From the NCBI GenBank assembly GCA_044376435.1, contig JBILKX010000001.1, forward strand, positions 2,715 to 26,714: a stretch of 24,000 bases of DNA, in the 5' to 3' direction. Every line of letters starts with the position of its first letter. Positions within the stretch are counted from its first letter, which is position 1. Under the pieces are notes generated by a model. That model worked only from the letters and a program-made list of their open reading frames with translations, searched no databases and had not been told where the DNA came from. This DNA is from Alphaproteobacteria bacterium. Its GTDB lineage: Bacteria; Pseudomonadota; Alphaproteobacteria; JBILKX01. Positions 7,079 to 23,469 of the stretch are shown piece by piece. The position numbers and the translations under genes were made by a program.

Positions 7079-8197
7079 ATGCGTTCAATTTTATCTGCTG
7101 CCGTATGTGTTAGTTTGTTGTTAAATCCTCTCGGGGGAGCTTGGGCATACAGTCCCAATCGTGCAACTCTCGAAGATCAGCATGCATCAAAGAAGTTAGG
7201 CAACACCCAACAAGCAGCTCAAGAGGCTGTAGAGCCCGCAGCTGATCACCCTAAAGCTAAGTCTAAGAGAGCAGCATGGATTGTTATTGGCACTATGACT
7301 GGCGTCGCTGCGATCCTTAGTATTATCATCTGGGGGGCTTTTCGCAATTCGGCGACAACTGATAAGTCAACTGGTTTGGATCAAAATGACAATCATTTTA
7401 ACGATCCCAAAACAATAAAAAACTTTGTTAAGAGTTTTACGAATCCTCCTGGGGGAAGAGGTTCTTCGACCTTTGACTCAGGTGCGTTAGGGAAGGATGA
7501 CTCAACGAAGAGAAGTCTCAATCAGCCTTTGCAATATTTGGACTTAGAAGGCTATTCACCTCAAAAGCAGCAGCAAGATTCCAGAAAAGCCAAAGAGTAC
7601 GAAGACAGAGGCAAGGTGTCTGTTGATAGCACATTTCACCCAAAAAAGGTTGCTGAGAAACTAGAGATAACGCAACCTGTTACTCCTGCAACGAATCCCA
7701 ACCCTGCCACAGTGAGCGCAACGCCCATCAGTGATGAATTTCCTTTTTTTGGAAATGAGATTTTTGTCGCATCAACAGCAGAAATCCGGGCAAATGCCAT
7801 GAAGGCTGAAAAAATGCAACACATGTCGCTTTATTATTCAGCTTTGGGAATGAGTCCAGCTAAGGCTCTTGATGAAAAAGCTCGTGTGAGTAAGAATTTA
7901 GAGCGTTCTGGCTCAGGTGCGTTAGGGGAGGATGACTCAACGAAGAGGAGTCTCAATCAGTCTTTGCGATATTTTGACTTAGAAGGGAGAAGCGATTTCA
8001 GTCAACACCAGCAGCAAGATTCCAGAAAAGCCAAAGAGTGCGAAGACAGAGGCAAGGTGTTTGCTGATAGCACATTTGTTCGACAGAAGGTTGCTGAGCA
8101 GCAGGTAGAGAAGTCTGGTGTTGCTGCAGAAACGAACACTAATAATATGGATCCTTATAAACTCCCGACCGATAACCAAAGTTGTGTAATTGCTTGA
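7079..8197 (+). CDS. Orphan repeat-containing protein with N-terminal signal-like segment, a second hydrophobic helix and a C-terminal CaaX box (CVIA)
   Basis: 372-aa ORF with RBS and promoter candidate. N-terminus MRSILSAAVCVSLLLNPLGGAWA; hydrophobic helix AAWIVIGTMTGVAAILSIIIWGAF. Contains two ~60-aa paralogous modules. The last four residues are C-V-I-A before the stop. No family recognised. Confidence 0.7.
   Translation: MRSILSAAVCVSLLLNPLGGAWAYSPNRATLEDQHASKKLGNTQQAAQEAVEPAADHPKAKSKRAAWIVIGTMTGVAAILSIIIWGAFRNSATTDKSTGLDQNDNHFNDPKTIKNFVKSFTNPPGGRGSSTFDSGALGKDDSTKRSLNQPLQYLDLEGYSPQKQQQDSRKAKEYEDRGKVSVDSTFHPKKVAEKLEITQPVTPATNPNPATVSATPISDEFPFFGNEIFVASTAEIRANAMKAEKMQHMSLYYSALGMSPAKALDEKARVSKNLERSGSGALGEDDSTKRSLNQSLRYFDLEGRSDFSQHQQQDSRKAKECEDRGKVFADSTFVRQKVAEQQVEKSGVAAETNTNNMDPYKLPTDNQSCVIA
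7477..7657 (+). repeat. Internal direct repeat copy 1 (in frame) of the 7079 gene
   Basis: ctcaggtgcgttaggg...aaggttgctgag encodes GALGKDDSTKRSLNQPLQYLDLEGYSPQKQQQDSRKAKEYEDRGKVSVDSTFHPKKVAE. It matches copy 2 at both DNA and protein level. Confidence 0.8.
7912..8098 (+). repeat. Internal direct repeat copy 2 (in frame) of the 7079 gene
   Basis: Encodes GALGEDDSTKRSLNQSLRYFDLEGRSDFSQHQQQDSRKAKECEDRGKVFADSTFVRQKVAE. It lies 435 bp downstream of copy 1 and carries a 6-nt insertion. Confidence 0.8.
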
Positions 8198-8418: not shown

Positions 8419-8494
8419 GCCGGTTTAGCTCAGCTGGTAGAGCAACTGATTTGTAATCAGTAGGTCGTTGGTTCGATTCCGACAACCGGCACCA
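8419..8494 (+). tRNA. tRNA-Thr (anticodon UGU), CCA encoded
   Basis: Cloverleaf folded by hand: acceptor GCCGGTT/AACCGGC, D arm GCTC/GAGC, anticodon arm ACTGA-TTTGTAA-TCAGT, T arm GTTGG-TTCGATT-CCGAC, discriminator A, CCA. Confidence 0.92.
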
Positions 8495-15421: not shown

Positions 15422-18400
15422 CTATAGAAACTCGCGTTTCTGAGCCTGATATTCGACTTGCTGACGTAGCATCTCTTCAAGCTGGGTTTTATGCTTCTTC
15501 AACTCTTTGTGGGCGAGGTCCTGGTACAACTGCAGGTATTCGGGCTTGGCATCGGCAAGGTCGCCGTTAAAGGGAATCCCCCTTTCGTCCCGAAGCTCAG
15601 GCTGTAAGGACAGATACCGCTTGCCGAGTTTTGTGTGCATTGCGTTATCAATATTACTGCTTAGGTCCATCTGGGCGAATATGAGAGGTAGAAGCCAGCC
15701 CAGTTTACCGGCTTCAGGATTCACTGCCCTATAGTCAGAGGTGCCCTGACCAGTCCCCAGAGATAGAATGTGGACGTTCTGCTCGTAAGGTAGAATATCC
15801 TCATGGCGACGTTTGATCGCCTCCAGCACCAGCTCGGCCGGATTGTTCTTCCAGATCCCGCCATCGAGGAACGTATACGGCTTCTCTGCCGGCTTCCAGT
15901 TCATAATCTCATGGTGGCTATAGGTTGGCCTTGTGCGCCTCAGATTGTAAATCTGGGCCGACGAGAAGTAGGTTGGCGCGGCTGACGTGGCCCGCCCGAC
16001 ATCGCGCATGAGAAAATCCCAATGCGCATGCCGCTGGGCATTCCAGCTATCAAAAATGAACGGCGTAAACGGCGAAGTTGACCCATCAACCGTGGTTACC
16101 AGCACATTGGTTAAGGTGTCGCTGAGATGGAGGTCTTGAAACGAGTGACTCAGCAGGGCTTCTAAACCATCAGCTGAGTACTTGTTCTCTAAGATTCCCA
16201 TTGTCTTAGGCGTAAAGATCTTATGACCATGCTCCGTAAACAGCTTGGTCAGCTCAGCTAAGTCCGCAATCTGGCGCGTGTGCCCATCGGCAGACGCTGT
16301 ACAACCTAACGCCAGAATCCCTCCAATGGAGGTGCCGCCGAGGTAATCAAAGAGCTCATGAATCTGGAAGGCCTTCTTGGTATAATCCTTAGAACGGGTT
16401 TCCAATGCCTCGAGTATCACAGCTGGAATCAGACCACGGATGCCCCCGCCACAAATCGAAAGACCATAATAGTGGTTGGGAGTGTCTTTAGGGAAAGCGT
16501 GACGCGTGTCTGAAACGTATCCCTCCGTGGGGTTCGCAAGCGGTTTCGTCCAAAATGGCGAACCCTCATCTAGAAAGGTGGTTTGGGATATGCGCTCTGG
16601 AATCGCTGTGATGGAAGATAGTTCGTTGCCGTGAGATACCTCTTGCTTGCCGTTATTCTCCGCTCTTTCCATACCTGGGCTTTCTTCCTTCAGGATGAGC
16701 AGGTTGTAGTGGGTTAAGCCATGGGTATGAAGCGCATAGACGGTATTCCCCGTGGCGCTTGGGTTAGCGGTATGGACACAGATCACCTCCTGGGAGCTGC
16801 CTGGCTTTTTCTGCCAGACGTGAGCCTTAGTATTGGTAAGCTTAGCCAACGCATCCAGGCTGGCAGTGCTTCCAGGGATGTAGCTCAGCCACCCGCCCTT
16901 GGCGAGATAGCCCAAGACAAACTCGGTGAAGATGTCGGGGTCGAGGCCGTAGGTGTTCAGGGTGCGCTCAATGTCATCACAGATTTTGATCGCTTTGAGT
17001 AGGGCAGCTTTCTCACTGGTGTAAAATGCATCGGCCATCGTGTCGAATAGCTTGAGCAGCGCTGCCGCCTCATGGAAAACCGAAGTCTTTAAGCTGGTAT
17101 TGATCTTGCGAAGCGTCTCATCCATGTCGCTCTGGGCTTTATGGTATTGCTGGGCGAGAGCCTGACCGCCGCTGTCTTTCAAGGTCGGTGGCAGCGTCCC
17201 TGTCACTAGTGCCGCCTTGATTTCTGACTGGATGAGTTGGCGAATCTCTTTGGCGATCTCCGGTTGGTTTTGCGACTCGAGAAGCTTTTCCACCGCGGTA
17301 TCGCGGTCTAGCCCGAGCACATTAAATCCGCAGCTCGCAGCATTATGGACCGTGTCGAACTCACTCATCTTGGCTTCTTCGAAGATGAGGGTGTGGCCTT
17401 GGGGAGAAAGCTTGCCTTTTAGCGGGAGAGACACAGTGGGGAGGCTAGCGGTAGACAGCGGGATCAAGAGAGGAGACACTGGCTTTTCAGCTTTGGGGGA
17501 CGCCATGGACGGTATCTGTGTCTGAAGGAGTTGCCTGCCAGAGCTTGCCTGTCGAGAGCGGTTTCTCTCAACAGCCTCGGAGATCTCATGCCTTAGTTTC
17601 TCGCCAATCTGATTATGACTTAAGTCTAGCCATGTCAGAGCGGAATTGGAGAGGAGAGCCTGGGCCATCGATGCTGCGCCGCTGTCGCCAATCTGATTCC
17701 CCACTAAGTTTAGGTCTGTCAGAGCGGAATTGGAGAGGAGCGCCTGGGCCATCGATGCCGCCCCCTGGTCGCCCATCTGATTACTCCCTAAGTTTAGCTG
17801 TCTCAGAGCGGAGTTTGTGAGCAGAGCCTGGGCCATCGATGCCGCCCCGCTGGCGCCAATCTGATTCTGCCCTAAGTCTAGGCGTGTCAGAGCGGCGTTT
17901 GTGAGCAGAGCTTGGGCGATCGATGCCGCCCCCTGGTCGCCAATCTCATTATGCCCTAAGTTTAGCTGTCTCAGAGCGGAGTTTGTGAGCAGAGCCTGGG
18001 CGATCGATGCCGCCCCCTTGGCGCCAATGTAATTACTCCCTAAGTTTAGCTGTCTCAGAGCGGAGTTTGTGAGCAGAGCCTGGGCGATCGATGCCGCCCC
18101 GCTGGCGCCCATCTGATTATCCTCTAAGTCTAGCTGTCTCAGAGCGGAATTTGTGAGCAGAGCCTGGGCCATCGATGCCGCTCCTTTATCACCAATCTGA
18201 TTAATAGATAAGTCTAGCTGTCTCAGAGCGGAATTTGTGAGCAGAGCCTGGGCCATCGATGCCGCCCCGCTGGCGCCAATCTGATTCCACGTTAAGTTTA
18301 GCTGTGTCAGAGCGGCGTTCCTTTGAAGAATATCGGCGAAGAATTGTGCTCCTTGATCATCAATCTGATTTTGCGCTAAGTTTAGCTCTGTTAGAGAGAC

Positions 18401-21400
18401 ATCTATGAGCTCCCGTCGGAGCTTGTCTTGAGTCATAGCGCTGAGTTTTTTAAACAGATTGAGATTGAATCTGGGATACTTTTCGAGCATTTCGCGTTCT
18501 TCAATCCGGTCACAGCCTTGAAGCTTCAGGTCTGTTAAGGTTGGCGCTTGCGCTATAAGCGTTGCGAGTTCAGTTTCTGGAAGATTTTTATCGCCTTGAA
18601 AGTCGGCAGACCTTAAGAGCGGACATTGAAGAGCTAATGTGCTTAATTTGGGACAGTGCGGGAGCGCCAACTTGCGCAGCCGAGGCGTATCGAGCCCAAG
18701 TCTTTCCAAGTTATCGCACGAGCTTATCGTTAAATGCGTGAGGTTTTTCATCCTTAAAGAAGTTGATTGGATCCAACTGGACAACCATGCACGGACATCG
18801 GGAGCGACATAGATTATCTCTGTAAGCCCTGGAAGGTCGTGCAAGCTTATCGAACTCAGTCCAGGCGATGTTTCAGATAACATCACAAAAATCTGCCCCG
18901 TTACCTCGGGACACTGACTTAACTGGAGGTGGGTCAGATTCGCCAGGGTAAACTTTTGCAGAATCATATTGGTTAAGGCGTGGGTATTGAGGCTTAGTGA
19001 ACGCCACTCATAGCGTTTGAGCTCCTCAAGCCACTGTTGTTGGCTGCTGAGGGGCAGCTTCCTCAAATCTAGGTTATGCGCTAAAAACTTCTCCCGCTGC
19101 GCTTGCATTGTGAGGGACTGAAAATCCTCTAAACTCTGGCCGAGGATTTCTTTGCGTAATTGCTCTTGAATCTTTTGTAATTCAATGAGGGCGGTGTGGG
19201 GACCGATGCCAACGCCGCGCTTTAGTTGGTCAAGGGTCATTTCGTTTGGCTCGACTTTCTGCGACCTCAAAACGGCCTGCGCTGTCGTTGAGGTTATGTA
19301 ACCGCCCTGAGCGTTGGTTTTATAGTCGCCGCCATCAACCCGCTTAAACCGTTCCGCGACGGAAATATTTTCGGCCAAGATCGCCTGATAGCGTTTGCCG
19401 AGTTCAGGCTCCAATTTCATCAAAAGATCTATAAAGGTTAAGTCTGGGTTGTTTTGGTTATCTTCTAAGATTTTTTGCAACCGGATAAGATCTGCATACA
19501 GCTGCTGAATCATGAGGGGGGTAAAAGGGACGCCAATAAAAGTGGGATTATGTTTTCGACTGAGAAAGACCTTTAGCTCGTCAGGCGTGAAGAGCCCCAT
19601 ATAGCTCTCATGAATTCCAGAGACTTTTTGCAGCCATTTGGTGGTTAACTCCCCCGGGTTGAGCGTGGTGCGAAAATGGTCCCTGACCTCTTGGGGGATT
19701 TTTTCTTTCATCTGATCTAGGCAAAAGAGCACCGACTTCACTCGCACCTTGAGCTTGGTGTTGCCGTCTTTGACTTCCGTTGCAAAGGTTGGGACAAAGC
19801 TGTGATCATTGTCGACACAGGTAATCGTATATCGCGTGGTCGTGGGGTGTGAATCGGGGACAAAGGGGGTGAGAATATAGTTATCTGGCTTGCCATCTTC
19901 TGGCCGAATTATCATCGTTGAGAGCAGGATTTTGCCGAGGCTGTTCAGGTCAAGCTGGGCGAGGGAGATCGGTTTCTTCTCAAGCACGTCTTGGAGATTA
20001 TCCCCTTTGATTCCCCCTGAGATCAAGACGGGATCTTCTCCCATACGCGTCAACTCAACGTAGGGGGCGCCATGGCCCGCGAGCAGACGCATCAGTTCTC
20101 CAGCGGCATACTCCATGCCAGGGAGTTCGGGATTAAGTTTGAAGTACAGCTCATAATCTCCATGAGTAGCTCTGCCAACAGGCGCGCGACCATAGGTTTT
20201 AAGGGCTTTAAACTCTCCTTTCGGACCTGTAAGTTGCTGGAACACGTCGGGGCGTAAAAAGCGGGTTTTCTGAGTCGCAGTTTTGATAGCGGTGCCGTTA
20301 CCCTTTGAGGGCAGTAGAGTCTCAAGAGCCATGCGCCAAGCAATTTCAGGGTTTCTGGATTCTAGAATTTTTAGGGCTGTAGCAAGGGGGGACTTTGCGC
20401 TAAGCTTGACGCTCTCTTGAAAATCTTGCAAGTGCCGCCAGTGGACGTGCTTGCCGGCTCCTTTATAAATGAGGTAGGAGACAATCTCAGAAGCTTTGAG
20501 CCTTAAGGCAAGATCAAGCGCGCTTTGCCTGTTGGAGTCTAGGGTCTCGATGATTCCAGGTTGCTCAAGGAGGACCTCTAGCCGTTGAATGACTTGCTGG
20601 GGGTCATCTTTATGCTGATTAATGATCTTGTGCAGCAGGGGCTGGTGGACTTTGTCAACCCAATGGGGATTGGCGCCAAGCTTGATCAGAAGTTTAAGCG
20701 CCGCCGCTGATAAGTCTTCGCGGACGATCTGCTGCAGTACTTCTGGCTGTCTCCAGCGATCTGGGATGAGCGTTAGGTGGGCGCGTTCAGCAAAACTGCG
20801 GGTGAGTTGCTCAACCAGGCCCGGTGTGGGGGAGAGGTTTGATAAGAGATTGTGGGTTAGCTCCCGGATGGTCTGGACGTTGTCCACTTTCTTAAGTTCA
20901 AGCTCACGCAGGAGCTTAAACAAGGGCTTTGCGGAGGGTCCTATCTTGTGACTAACATCGAGGAAGTCTTCAACTGGCTTGGGGACAGTCCACGTTTTTC
21001 CGTCCATAGCGGCATAGAGATGTGCGAATCCCTTGAGCGGATCTGGGTAGAGCTTCTTGAGTTTTTGATAGTACGCGAACGTGATTGGCTGGATGGTTTG
21101 GAGTAGCTGAGTGTGAGTAAACTCCGGATGGTCTTTGAGCGTAGCCTGGACCAAATGTATTTTGCTGAGAAGCTCTGTCGTTGTGCCGCTCTTCAGTTTT
21201 AAGGGAATCCTCAGGTCGTCGGAGAGGTCCTTTGATAACTTTAAGGTGCCATAGCGTTCATTTTTAGCGTCAAGCAACCCGAGCCATTGTAATACGATGG
21301 ACTCAGGGGCTTGTGCGATAAAGTTTTTATAAATTTCTTTCTCAACAACATGATTCATCAAGGGTAAAAAATAAAGTATGTTCCTAACGTTCATGTTGTG

Positions 21401-22270
21401 CTGGCTTGTGTGCGCCCCAGAAGTGATCGGGCCGAGCTCAGGGACTAAAGCTTCGTCATTATCGATGCCGATGATAAACGCCTTCTGCTTTTGGAAGTAG
21501 ACACGGAAGTTATCACCTTTTGCATCAGCTGGGTTGGTGAGAAGGCTGCTGAGAAACAGAGCGCTAAAGTTGGCTTTATCTACCTGATCATAGCTATACT
21601 TTTTCTGACCCACACCTTGGATGAAGTCTTGCAGGCTGATGCCCTCAACCGTGCGGGAGGCTTGGAGGACGTAAGAGTGAGGGACAGGGGTGAGATAATC
21701 CTGCGCAAAGGTGGGATTTTTTTCTAGAAAAGTATCAAGAGTCTTGGTGGCGAGAGCAAGGCAATACTCGGCGTTGGTAGGGGTGTCAGGCTTAGGCTGG
21801 AGGATAGTCACGTTCTGCAAAGAGACCAGAGCCGACGGCGTTGCCCCCTGACCAACGAGTAACTTTGTGATGCAGTACATGGCTGATTCCATGCCCGGTG
21901 TTAACGGCGGCATGCCATTTGCTTTGAAGTGTACACCGTCTTTAGCAACGACTGCGTGATTACCGTCTTGGTTTATTTTTAGAAGGCAGCCATACTTATC
22001 TTTTGAGATCAGGCGTAAGGCCATTTCCTGAGAGATTGCGTAAGCCTGGTCCAAGATATCGCTGTGCATGATGACCGCATATTGTGGAGTCTGTGGCCCA
22101 ACCGGCTGAGCATTTGTGGCGTGGATCATCAAGCGGCTGAGATCTTTGATATCCTGCTCGATGATGCTCGGGGGCCACAGCCTGGTATCGCTGAGCTCCA
22201 TTGCCCAGGTGGTCTGAAGGACCAGAGAATAACATAAGGTAAGGCTCAGTATGCGTTTGAAGATTCGCAT
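15422..22270 (-). CDS. Giant (2,282 aa) secreted multidomain eukaryote-like protein: signal peptide, kinase-like 1, ANK, kinase-like 2, FBXL-type LRR, RNI-type LRR, OTU-like protease, patatin phospholipase
   Basis: A single uninterrupted ORF. AAGGAG RBS lies 7 nt upstream of the ATG (22268-22270). Domain motifs were read directly from the translation; see the sub-features. Confidence 0.92.
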   Translation of the reverse strand: MRIFKRILSLTLCYSLVLQTTWAMELSDTRLWPPSIIEQDIKDLSRLMIHATNAQPVGPQTPQYAVIMHSDILDQAYAISQEMALRLISKDKYGCLLKINQDGNHAVVAKDGVHFKANGMPPLTPGMESAMYCITKLLVGQGATPSALVSLQNVTILQPKPDTPTNAEYCLALATKTLDTFLEKNPTFAQDYLTPVPHSYVLQASRTVEGISLQDFIQGVGQKKYSYDQVDKANFSALFLSSLLTNPADAKGDNFRVYFQKQKAFIIGIDNDEALVPELGPITSGAHTSQHNMNVRNILYFLPLMNHVVEKEIYKNFIAQAPESIVLQWLGLLDAKNERYGTLKLSKDLSDDLRIPLKLKSGTTTELLSKIHLVQATLKDHPEFTHTQLLQTIQPITFAYYQKLKKLYPDPLKGFAHLYAAMDGKTWTVPKPVEDFLDVSHKIGPSAKPLFKLLRELELKKVDNVQTIRELTHNLLSNLSPTPGLVEQLTRSFAERAHLTLIPDRWRQPEVLQQIVREDLSAAALKLLIKLGANPHWVDKVHQPLLHKIINQHKDDPQQVIQRLEVLLEQPGIIETLDSNRQSALDLALRLKASEIVSYLIYKGAGKHVHWRHLQDFQESVKLSAKSPLATALKILESRNPEIAWRMALETLLPSKGNGTAIKTATQKTRFLRPDVFQQLTGPKGEFKALKTYGRAPVGRATHGDYELYFKLNPELPGMEYAAGELMRLLAGHGAPYVELTRMGEDPVLISGGIKGDNLQDVLEKKPISLAQLDLNSLGKILLSTMIIRPEDGKPDNYILTPFVPDSHPTTTRYTITCVDNDHSFVPTFATEVKDGNTKLKVRVKSVLFCLDQMKEKIPQEVRDHFRTTLNPGELTTKWLQKVSGIHESYMGLFTPDELKVFLSRKHNPTFIGVPFTPLMIQQLYADLIRLQKILEDNQNNPDLTFIDLLMKLEPELGKRYQAILAENISVAERFKRVDGGDYKTNAQGGYITSTTAQAVLRSQKVEPNEMTLDQLKRGVGIGPHTALIELQKIQEQLRKEILGQSLEDFQSLTMQAQREKFLAHNLDLRKLPLSSQQQWLEELKRYEWRSLSLNTHALTNMILQKFTLANLTHLQLSQCPEVTGQIFVMLSETSPGLSSISLHDLPGLTEIIYVAPDVRAWLSSWIQSTSLRMKNLTHLTISSCDNLERLGLDTPRLRKLALPHCPKLSTLALQCPLLRSADFQGDKNLPETELATLIAQAPTLTDLKLQGCDRIEEREMLEKYPRFNLNLFKKLSAMTQDKLRRELIDVSLTELNLAQNQIDDQGAQFFADILQRNAALTQLNLTWNQIGASGAASMAQALLTNSALRQLDLSINQIGDKGAASMAQALLTNSALRQLDLEDNQMGASGAASIAQALLTNSALRQLNLGSNYIGAKGAASIAQALLTNSALRQLNLGHNEIGDQGAASIAQALLTNAALTRLDLGQNQIGASGAASMAQALLTNSALRQLNLGSNQMGDQGAASMAQALLSNSALTDLNLVGNQIGDSGAASMAQALLSNSALTWLDLSHNQIGEKLRHEISEAVERNRSRQASSGRQLLQTQIPSMASPKAEKPVSPLLIPLSTASLPTVSLPLKGKLSPQGHTLIFEEAKMSEFDTVHNAASCGFNVLGLDRDTAVEKLLESQNQPEIAKEIRQLIQSEIKAALVTGTLPPTLKDSGGQALAQQYHKAQSDMDETLRKINTSLKTSVFHEAAALLKLFDTMADAFYTSEKAALLKAIKICDDIERTLNTYGLDPDIFTEFVLGYLAKGGWLSYIPGSTASLDALAKLTNTKAHVWQKKPGSSQEVICVHTANPSATGNTVYALHTHGLTHYNLLILKEESPGMERAENNGKQEVSHGNELSSITAIPERISQTTFLDEGSPFWTKPLANPTEGYVSDTRHAFPKDTPNHYYGLSICGGGIRGLIPAVILEALETRSKDYTKKAFQIHELFDYLGGTSIGGILALGCTASADGHTRQIADLAELTKLFTEHGHKIFTPKTMGILENKYSADGLEALLSHSFQDLHLSDTLTNVLVTTVDGSTSPFTPFIFDSWNAQRHAHWDFLMRDVGRATSAAPTYFSSAQIYNLRRTRPTYSHHEIMNWKPAEKPYTFLDGGIWKNNPAELVLEAIKRRHEDILPYEQNVHILSLGTGQGTSDYRAVNPEAGKLGWLLPLIFAQMDLSSNIDNAMHTKLGKRYLSLQPELRDERGIPFNGDLADAKPEYLQLYQDLAHKELKKHKTQLEEMLRQQVEYQAQKREFL
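15671..16474 (-). other. Patatin-like phospholipase domain (aa ~1933-2200)
   Basis: Oxyanion GGGIRG (16433-16450, verified at nucleotide level), nucleophile elbow G-T-S(1981)-I-G, catalytic Asp in FLD(2136)GG, and the conserved ATSAAPTYF block. Confidence 0.88.
16691..17368 (-). other. OTU-like cysteine protease (putative deubiquitinase) module, aa ~1635-1860
   Basis: Cys box FDTVHNAASC(1647)GFNVLG. A long helical insertion follows, then the His box NTVYALHTHGLTH(1854)YNLLI, which resembles the OTU C-terminal motif (VYLLY...GHYD.L). The Asp of the usual D-G-N-C box is not obvious. Confidence 0.4.
17603..18394 (-). repeat. Tandem 84-bp repeat array encoding about nine 28-aa RNI/NLR-type leucine-rich repeats (aa 1293-1556)
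   Basis: Unit consensus: LRQLNLGSNQIGDQGAASMAQALLTNSA. The eight core units (17639-18310) are near-identical at DNA level (recurring gtctcagagcgga(g/a)tttgtgagcagagcctgggc(c/g)atcgatgccgcc). They are flanked by a degenerate first unit and a capping half-unit. Confidence 0.9.
18506..18988 (-). other. Cysteine-containing LRRs (FBXL/AMN1 type), aa ~1095-1255
   Basis: Repeated L..L.L..C..(L/I)T pattern: NLTHLQLSQCPEVTG, LSSISLHDLPGLT, NLTHLTISSCDNLERL, LRKLALPHCPKLSTL, LTDLKLQGCDRI. Confidence 0.6.
19781..20203 (-). other. Atypical kinase-like module 2 (aa ~690-830)
   Basis: ELYFK(711)LNPELPGMEYAAGELMRLLAG; PVLISGGIKGDNLQDVL; EDGKPD(796)N(797)YIL; TCVD(820)ND(822)HSF. It aligns colinearly with module 1. 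Confidence 0.45.
20453..20758 (-). other. Ankyrin-repeat-like region (aa ~505-606)
   Basis: AAALKLLIKLGANPHWVDKVHQPLLHKII... and ...NRQSALDLALRLKASEIVSYLIYKGAG fit the ANK helix-turn-helix consensus (L..GA(N/D)....G.T.LH.A). Confidence 0.55.
21371..22003 (-). other. Atypical kinase-like module 1 (aa ~90-300)
   Basis: VHFK(116)ANG..PLTPGMESA...LL.G; hinge-like ..QASRTVEGISLQDFI; DAKGD(253)N(254)FRV; IGID(270)ND(272)EAL. This matches the Lys / Glu / D-x-x-x-x-N / DxD pattern of protein-kinase-like or PI3/4-kinase-like folds. It is paralogous to module 2. Confidence 0.45.
22202..22270 (-). other. Sec-type signal peptide of the giant protein (aa 1-23)
   Basis: MRIFKRILSLTLCYSLVLQTTWA|MEL: basic n-region, hydrophobic core and a small-x-small (T-W-A) cleavage context. 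Confidence 0.65.
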
Positions 22271-22378
22271 AGCGAGACTCCTTGAAGAAAAATAGCGACG
22301 ATGAAAAATGAATCGTGCTTAAGTTAATTTTTACAATTTTAACAAATAAATTGGCAAATAGGAAGTATATACCCAATG

Positions 22379-23270: not shown

Positions 23271-23346
<76 letters not shown>

Positions 23347-23395
23347 ATATGGTTATGGACCCTACTTGGTTTGCTTGTAAAAGTCAACCTGTTTT

Positions 23396-23469
23396 TGGAG
23401 GCCAGGACCGGAATCGAACCGACGTACAAGGATTTGCAGTCCTCTGCATGACCACTCTGCCACCCGGCC
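23396..23469 (-). tRNA. tRNA-Cys (anticodon GCA), CCA encoded
   Basis: Reverse complement: GGCCGGG-TG-GCAG-AGTGGTC-ATGC-A-GAGGA-CTGCAAA-TCCTT-GTAC-GTCGG-TTCGATT-CCGGT-CCTGGCC-T-CCA. The discriminator U and the short D stem are typical of tRNA-Cys. The T stem has two G-U pairs. Confidence 0.85.

Follow-up and report, generated by a model that had tools for sequence, protein, structure and literature searches.

Eukaryote-like multi-domain effectors are a known kind of protein. The patatin phospholipases ExoU, VipD and the Rickettsia Pat proteins share the motifs GGGxRG, GxSxG and DGG, and other patatin effectors are activated by a host factor. In the OTU superfamily, the LOT class (LotA, LotB and LotC) is described in PMC7690952 as carrying a lobe of 178–210 amino acids (aa), where classical OTUs have 50–60 aa and otubains 110–120 aa; the same source lists the CCHF vOTU among the nearest structural relatives of LotB and LotC. 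The NEX1 and NEX2 families of amoeba-associated Chlamydiae are large paralogous families of protist symbionts that combine F-box, leucine-rich repeat (LRR) and sometimes OTU domains, and the main text of the paper on them uses the word 'kinase' 0 times and describes no kinase-like core for NEX or PEX (PMC4209131). Here we analyse a 24,000-nucleotide (nt) stretch of DNA, referred to below as the window, from an Alphaproteobacteria bacterium (GenBank assembly GCA_044376435.1, contig JBILKX010000001.1, positions 2,715 to 26,714), in which one gene encodes a giant protein of 2,282 aa. What is new in this protein is a large undescribed kinase-fold family that it exposes, built on a core in which ankyrin-like (ANK) repeats lie between two kinase-like modules; we found no account of this core family in the literature. 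The most likely role of the gene product is that of an exported multi-enzyme effector directed at a host, made by a bacterium living with or inside protists.

A tandem kinase-like core

A preliminary description, made from the letters of the window, had reported a single uninterrupted open reading frame (ORF) filling about 29% of it, and the ORF indeed occupies 6,849 of the 24,000 bases (28.5%); NCBI lists the same 2,282-aa product, and the product is also on record at JGI. That description also read two paralogous atypical kinase-like modules in the protein, at aa ~90–300 and ~690–830. The pair is borne out, but both modules are considerably longer than was proposed (Table 1). Modules 1 and 2 are related to one another by BLASTP (E 2e-10, 23% identity over 222 aa), and neither has a match in Pfam, in NCBIfam or among PDB sequences in direct and profile searches.

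Module 2 was modelled directly. With an 11-sequence alignment (A1) as input, AlphaFold2 returned a confident model (pLDDT 85.4, pTM 0.87), and a Foldseek search of the PDB with this model gave 45 matches at E ≤ 0.001, all 45 of them kinases, so that the AlphaFold and Foldseek check suggested for the second module recovered a kinase fold. The top match is human type II phosphatidylinositol (PI) 4-kinase alpha (PI4K2A, chain 4hnd_A; E 1.9e-4, TM 0.42/0.44). Together with 5eut it ranks first with the best TM scores (0.42–0.44), at an rmsd of 4.7–6.3 Å (4.7 Å for 5eut), and the protein kinases stand lower in the list at TM 0.25–0.29. Residues K711, E720, D792 and D820 are invariant in alignment A1 and N797 is nearly so, and all are conserved in the wider family. 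In the family hidden Markov model (HMM) alignment of 134 two-module proteins, both copies keep the Lys and Glu that would form the ATP-binding pair, the D-x-K-x-x-N of the catalytic loop and the D-N-D with its metal-binding-type Asp. Taken together, the paralogy, the model and the residue conservation support the prediction of a protein-kinase-like fold for both modules, and because the catalytic-type residues are kept in both copies, both are likely to be catalytically active.

Further comparison with PI4K2A, whose sequence was verified against chain 4hnd_A, gave a mixed picture. Using hhalign, module 2 and PI4K2A align from the catalytic loop through the IDN motif (E 0.017–0.032 over 77–81 columns), and three pairs of motifs are colinear in PI4K2A and module 2, respectively: AVFKPKNEEP and LYFKLNPELP, IIRNTDRGNDNWLI and MIIRPEDGKPDNYIL, and AAIDNGLAFP and CVDNDHSFVP. 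In contrast, HMMER found no match. The modules also differ from that enzyme in having no Pfam PI3_PI4_kinase match, in lacking the CCPCC palmitoylation motif, in occurring twice in tandem and in carrying a Lys two residues past the catalytic Asp, as Ser/Thr protein kinases do. In a weak hhalign match to PKA, D792, K794 and N797 fall on D166, K168 and N171. We treat a lipid-kinase reading of the modules as a lead and not as a result. A weak NCBIfam match to Legionella AnkF/LegA14 (E 4.5e-5) covers model positions 604–780; since these lie inside aa 485–921, the ankyrin span of the 917-residue LegA14 in the Legionella effector atlas, the match was set aside and not used for the kinase modules.

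Patatin, OTU-type and repeat regions

The C-terminal region can be assigned firmly, by its motifs and profile matches, as a complete patatin phospholipase with a predicted Ser-Asp dyad and oxyanion motif. Pfam PF01734 matches aa 1937–2148 at 67 bits (cut-off 27.7), the motif set is complete (GGGIRG at 1941, GxS1981xG and D2136-GG), with S1981 and D2136 where they had been placed beforehand, and the PDB patatin 1oxw matches at E 4e-21. The PADLOC phospholipase effector model matches over its full length at 154.8 bits, and the NCBIfam model CBASS_lipase (NF041079) matches at 138.1 bits over positions 4–311 of 317, under its equivalog cut-off of 200. While the preliminary description had compared this domain to ExoU and VipD, its nearest relatives are CapV/CBASS-type and plant patatins; no ExoU or VipD chain is among the PDB matches listed for the full-length protein, and no direct comparison was made. 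The domain thus resembles CapV of CBASS in matching CapV-type models over their full length but differs from it in scoring under the equivalog cut-off and in lacking CBASS partners: no CD-NTase gene stands beside the giant gene, whose neighbours are def and ybeY/mfd. It differs from ExoU, VipD and the Rickettsia Pat proteins in sharing one chain with kinase-like, OTU and LRR modules.

The region at aa ~1620–1870 had been described as an OTU-like Cys/His module, and its homologies support an OTU-type domain whose candidate catalytic residues Cys, His and Asn follow one another as is customary. By BLASTP its whole length matches the N-terminal domain of homologue P0013 (E 2e-7), C1647 being paired with the Cys in GDGDCFFHA and H1854-Y with NHF, and a seed HMM of the region picked up this domain in P0117, P0090, P0119 (GDGNC…NHF) and P0027 as well. 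C1647 is invariant in the resulting six-sequence alignment (A2) and H1854-Y-N1856 matches NHF(D/N); C1647 and H1854 are both at the positions first proposed. A search of the PDB with profile A2 returned 14 nairovirus OTU sequences (E 2e-5 to 0.03), with OTUD3, OTUB2 and EschOTU ranking next. The assignment is made because the region is homologous to GDGNC…HF domains whose profile matches solved OTUs; by itself the giant protein has no match to Pfam OTU (PF02338) at E ≤ 10, and a word-based homologue search with the region found nothing. A weak HIT-domain match at the stretch H-T-H-G-L-T-H (E 0.04) was taken as chance.

In the stretch that joins the Cys loop to the variable loop lie ~145 mostly helical residues, so that the lobe exceeds those of classical OTUs and otubains and approaches, but stays below, the 178–210 aa of the LOT class (PMC7690952). 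LOT proteins and nairovirus vOTUs share with this domain the order Cys…His, and its family profile matches vOTU structures (E 2e-5). It differs from the LOT proteins in a Cys loop that reads HNAASC and not GDGNC and in being internal to a 2,282-aa protein; no direct sequence match between the giant protein and the Lot proteins was found.

Three repeat arrays accompany these domains. The best defined is the ribonuclease inhibitor (RNI)-type LRR array, which Pfam LRR_6 matches at 133 bits over nine stretches; its PDB matches are to the LRRs of ribonuclease inhibitor (E 3e-33) and of NLRs, with E values from 1e-33 to 1e-44. From aa 1293 the array runs through nine full 28-aa units and a further half unit; the type proposed earlier is firm and the count of nine agrees with the sequence of the window, but the units are similar and not near-identical, the inner eight being 68–86% identical. 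The ankyrin-like repeats between the kinase-like modules and the cysteine-containing FBXL-type LRRs behind them are each less certain in the giant protein itself, where the Pfam matches fall short of the cut-offs (Table 1), and gain from their homologues. PF12796 is recorded for P0004, P0015 and P0020; in P0015, a 452-aa fragment with module 2 at 104–450, its position is deduced to be just ahead of module 2, where P0107 also has a sub-threshold Ank_2 match (22.1 bits, aa 529–605). The FBXL-type segment is matched by 86 of the 166 proteins collected, and the Pfam threshold is reached in P0064 (PF24758, 28.1 bits against 27) and in P0008 (PF25372, LRR_FBXL15).

Table 1. Features of the giant gene and its product in the window, in order from the upstream end of the gene.
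Feature	Residues (aa)	Position	Strand	Details and basis
Shine-Dalgarno AAGGAG		22278..22283	(-)	7 nt from ATG at 22270; read from sequence
Whole gene	2,282 aa	15422..22270	(-)	uninterrupted ORF, 2,282 codons + stop
Signal-peptide-like N-terminus	1-23	22202..22270	(-)	MRIFKR, then ILSLTLCYSLVLQ, then TWA/M; read from sequence
Kinase-like module 1	~60-440	20951..22093	(-)	K116, E128, D249-A-K251-G-D-N254, D270-N-D; residue equivalences from family HMM alignment
ANK-like repeats	~520-610	20441..20713	(-)	Pfam Ank_2 E 1e-4, 23.1 bits, below cut-off 27.3
Kinase-like module 2	640-1015	19226..20353	(-)	K711, E720, D792-G-K794-P-D-N797, D820-N-D; AlphaFold2 + Foldseek
Cysteine-containing FBXL-type LRRs	~1090-1290	18401..19003	(-)	weak Pfam F-box-associated LRR matches, 20.1 bits, below cut-off 26.9
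RNI/NLR-type 28-aa LRRs	1291-1575	17546..18400	(-)	Pfam LRR_6, PDB matches, unit alignment; holds 84-bp array
84-bp tandem array		17601-18315		8.5 copies, 84-bp period
OTU-type Cys/His domain with long helical lobe	~1620-1870	16661..17413	(-)	C1647; H1854-Y-N1856; homology + profile search
Patatin-like phospholipase, CapV-like subtype	1933-2274	15449..16474	(-)	G1941-GG-I-R-G, G-T-S1981-I-G, D2136-G-G; Pfam, NCBIfam, PADLOC, PDB

A family with a common core and variable ends

The tandem kinase-like pair, which the preliminary description could not name, is not peculiar to this protein but the conserved core of about 1,700 clusters. An exhaustive search with profile A1 retrieved 1,700 cluster representatives at E ≤ 0.001 (800 at E ≤ 1e-30), the clusters being defined at 50% identity, and most representatives have two matched stretches and a length of 1,000–5,000 aa. 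Neither Pfam nor NCBIfam holds a curated model for this very large family, which is now delimited. Within the core the order is conserved (kinase-like, ANK, kinase-like, FBXL-LRR), while the end modules vary: F-box-like N-termini (read from the sequences), OTU domains at either end, ANK, HEAT, RNI-LRR and patatin all occur. The core would thus serve as a conserved chassis to which different lineages attached differing end modules, and the family is a natural experiment in module swapping (F-box, OTU, patatin, ANK, HEAT and LRR ends).

That a fusion of all these modules is not a described protein, as claimed at the outset, stands in part. Among the 166 proteins examined, only the giant protein has an intact OTU domain and a patatin domain together, but the architecture is combinatorial and partial sets recur. 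The core with RNI-type LRRs and patatin is also present in at least three others, P0107, P0064 and P0106, which are full-length, and P0109, which looks truncated, ends C-terminally with just the beginning of a patatin match. The core with an OTU domain is found in at least five other proteins, and in P0064 the OTU-like segment is present in degenerate form (E 2e-8). Homologues that share the architecture are distant (30–40% identity). With the richest module set among the proteins examined, the giant protein is a good first target for biochemistry.

We located 39 genomic loci of the family, all in metagenome-assembled genomes (MAGs). Their labels include Chlamydiae, Dependentiae, Paracaedibacteraceae/Holosporales, Legionellales and Coxiellaceae, and the remaining labels are broad (Alpha- and Gammaproteobacteria, Proteobacteria/Pseudomonadota, 'uncultured bacterium'). 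The core with its two kinase-fold domains is common to symbionts of at least four bacterial lineages and to at least one apparently eukaryotic contig. In this respect the family, which spans several phyla, differs from NEX1 and NEX2, which it resembles as a large paralogous family of protist symbionts combining F-box, LRR and sometimes OTU domains. Copies often number four or five paralogues per genome. One complete 2.45-Mb gammaproteobacterial MAG chromosome (OZ220716.1) has five, four of them within 130 kb (1.24–1.37 Mb).

The contig that carries P0008 (L042, 8001–16496) is 1.1 Mb long and AT-rich and also bears RhoGEF, fn3 and split protein-kinase genes. It looks eukaryotic, and these features hint at a protist origin or at transfer into a protist. 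Homologue P0002 (L001, 1–2054 and 8001–13577) lies ~6 kb from a MobA/TraI-type relaxase gene, a neighbour suggesting that part of the family is carried by mobile elements; a tblastn search with module 2 of phage and plasmid collections gave no match. A crude hydrophobicity screen found signal-like N-termini in 26 of 163 family members. In P0082, P0102 and P0153 the N-termini are lipobox-like (…LLESC, …LMSC) and not plain signal peptides.

Integrity of the gene, competing explanations and genomic setting

The Sec signal peptide assigned beforehand to aa 1–23 is plausible, the segment (MRIFKR, ILSLTLCYSLVLQ, T-W-A/M) being signal-peptide-like when read by eye, while the further claim that the protein is secreted is one that we infer. 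One JGI gene call starts at Met24 and yields 2,259 aa, dropping the signal-like segment, but the ribosome-binding site is better at the upstream ATG and the position of AAGGAG supports a start at 22270 over Met24. An independent ENA assembly (contig L041) is 100% identical in DNA to the window over the ORF and both flanks, barring one in-frame 84-bp LRR unit (aa 1391–1418) that is absent from L041. The number of 84-bp units is accordingly 8 or 9, and it is uncertain whether this is true copy-number variation or short-read collapse. Because the two assemblies agree apart from the in-frame unit, the gene is neither a chimera nor a frameshifted remnant, both of which the preliminary description had raised as concerns; because they are otherwise identical, the two gene copies give no information on selection (dN/dS). 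The GC content of the ORF (0.48–0.56) is similar to that of neighbouring mfd, and nothing at the giant gene clearly marks a genomic island.

We consider a host-directed effector, exported by a bacterium associated with protists or living inside them, to be the probable role of the giant protein, because its modules need ATP, ubiquitin and eukaryotic partners, because its relatives are protist-associated and because the family shows paralogy and module swapping. Such an effector would leave the cytoplasm by Sec-dependent export, which the signal-like N-terminus and its recurrence in the family suggest, and would then be released by a further, unspecified step. The repeat arrays would attach to host proteins and bring the enzymes into place. 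The kinase-like domains would phosphorylate a host phosphoinositide or protein, the nearest solved fold being that of a type II PI 4-kinase; the OTU domain would remove ubiquitin or a ubiquitin-like modifier; and the patatin domain would hydrolyse host membrane phospholipid, probably only once activated by a host factor.

Some of the same features fit other roles. The signal-peptide-like N-terminus behind a good ribosome-binding site, the lipoprotein-like N-termini of some family members and the complete patatin lipase would all suit a toxin or exoenzyme that acts outside the host cytosol, for example after type II release or at the cell surface, damaging the membranes of grazing protists or of competitors and using its repeats as adhesion or targeting surfaces. 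We think this unlikely, since modules of the kinase, OTU, F-box, ANK and FBXL-LRR kinds depend on ATP, ubiquitin or cytosolic partners that are found only inside a eukaryotic cell. The full-length patatin matches (PADLOC at 154.8 bits, CBASS_lipase at 138 bits) and the likeness of RNI/NLR-type LRRs to sensor domains could instead indicate intracellular anti-phage defence, in which infection, detected by the LRR arrays, would activate the CapV-like phospholipase and so kill the cell in an NLR-like or CBASS manner. Yet the NCBIfam score is under the cut-off of 200, the PADLOC match is limited to the patatin region, and the genes that adjoin are def and ybeY, with neither a cyclase nor another defence gene. 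The giant protein also has a signal-like N-terminus, and its family, which carries F-box, OTU, ANK and HEAT modules, occurs only in host-associated lineages; on these grounds a defence role appears quite improbable. We give very little credence indeed to a decaying or mis-assembled gene without function, such as a repeat-driven chimera. The 84-bp tandem array, whose copy number is unequal between the two assemblies, and the atypical Cys loop of the OTU region might be taken to indicate one, but 6.8 kb are free of stops behind a strong ribosome-binding site, the catalytic-type residues are all intact, homologues at 30–40% identity have the same architecture and the two assemblies are identical barring one in-frame unit.

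Several points nevertheless weigh against the host-directed effector. The link to PI 4-kinases is modest (TM 0.42–0.44, hhalign E 0.017–0.032, HMMER negative). The Cys loop of the OTU region, HNAASC, is without the Asp-Gly that precedes the Cys in four of its five relatives (GDG(N/D)C); because this Asp-Gly is missing the activity of the domain is uncertain, and it may be weakly active or inactive. A single-sequence AlphaFold2 model of the region is of low confidence (pLDDT 38). A cleavable Sec signal is unusual among type III and type IV effectors, and no secretion system is encoded within the window. Host association is judged from the lineages of the homologues, and host targeting, secretion and enzymatic activity are all deduced from sequence. 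The earlier proposal of a host-targeting lipase, deubiquitinase and kinase in one chain is thus upheld as to its modules, every one of which has some support, whereas targeting and secretion are properties that we infer.

More tentatively, the core may be an unrecognised type II PI 4-kinase-like family of eukaryotic (protist) origin that serves as a chassis for rewriting host membranes and is common to unrelated intracellular bacteria across phyla; we regard this as possible but doubtful. If the PI 4-kinase-like reading were true, one chain would phosphorylate phosphoinositides (or proteins), remove ubiquitin and hydrolyse phospholipids, all at one site in the host, and kinases acting on phosphoinositides would amount to a widespread and so far unnoticed control of host membrane identity by symbionts. 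In any case, unusual enzymes and cell-biological tools abound among the effectors of intracellular bacteria.

On one flank of the giant gene lie hscA-fdx, motAB, gltA, rpsF-rpsR, murJ, holC, mfd and ybeY, and on the other def and two tRNAs. Given these housekeeping flanks (def, ybeY, mfd, holC, murJ), the gene is therefore chromosomal and belongs to no defence or toxin operon. By themselves, holC and the housekeeping neighbours, taken with the Gammaproteobacteria labels of some genomes that carry homologues, suggest no more than a gammaproteobacterium-like organism. The two tRNAs, tRNA-Asn and tRNA-Cys, are at 23271–23469 (-), beyond def and ~1 kb upstream of the giant gene, and a tRNA-Thr lies at 8419–8494 (+), ahead of rpsF. 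Also in the window is an ORF of 372 aa (7079–8197, +) with a signal-peptide-like N-terminus, a single hydrophobic stretch, no Pfam match and two internal repeats of ~55 aa (GALG.DDSTKRSLNQ…QQQDSRKAKE.EDRGKV), which may encode another exported protein.

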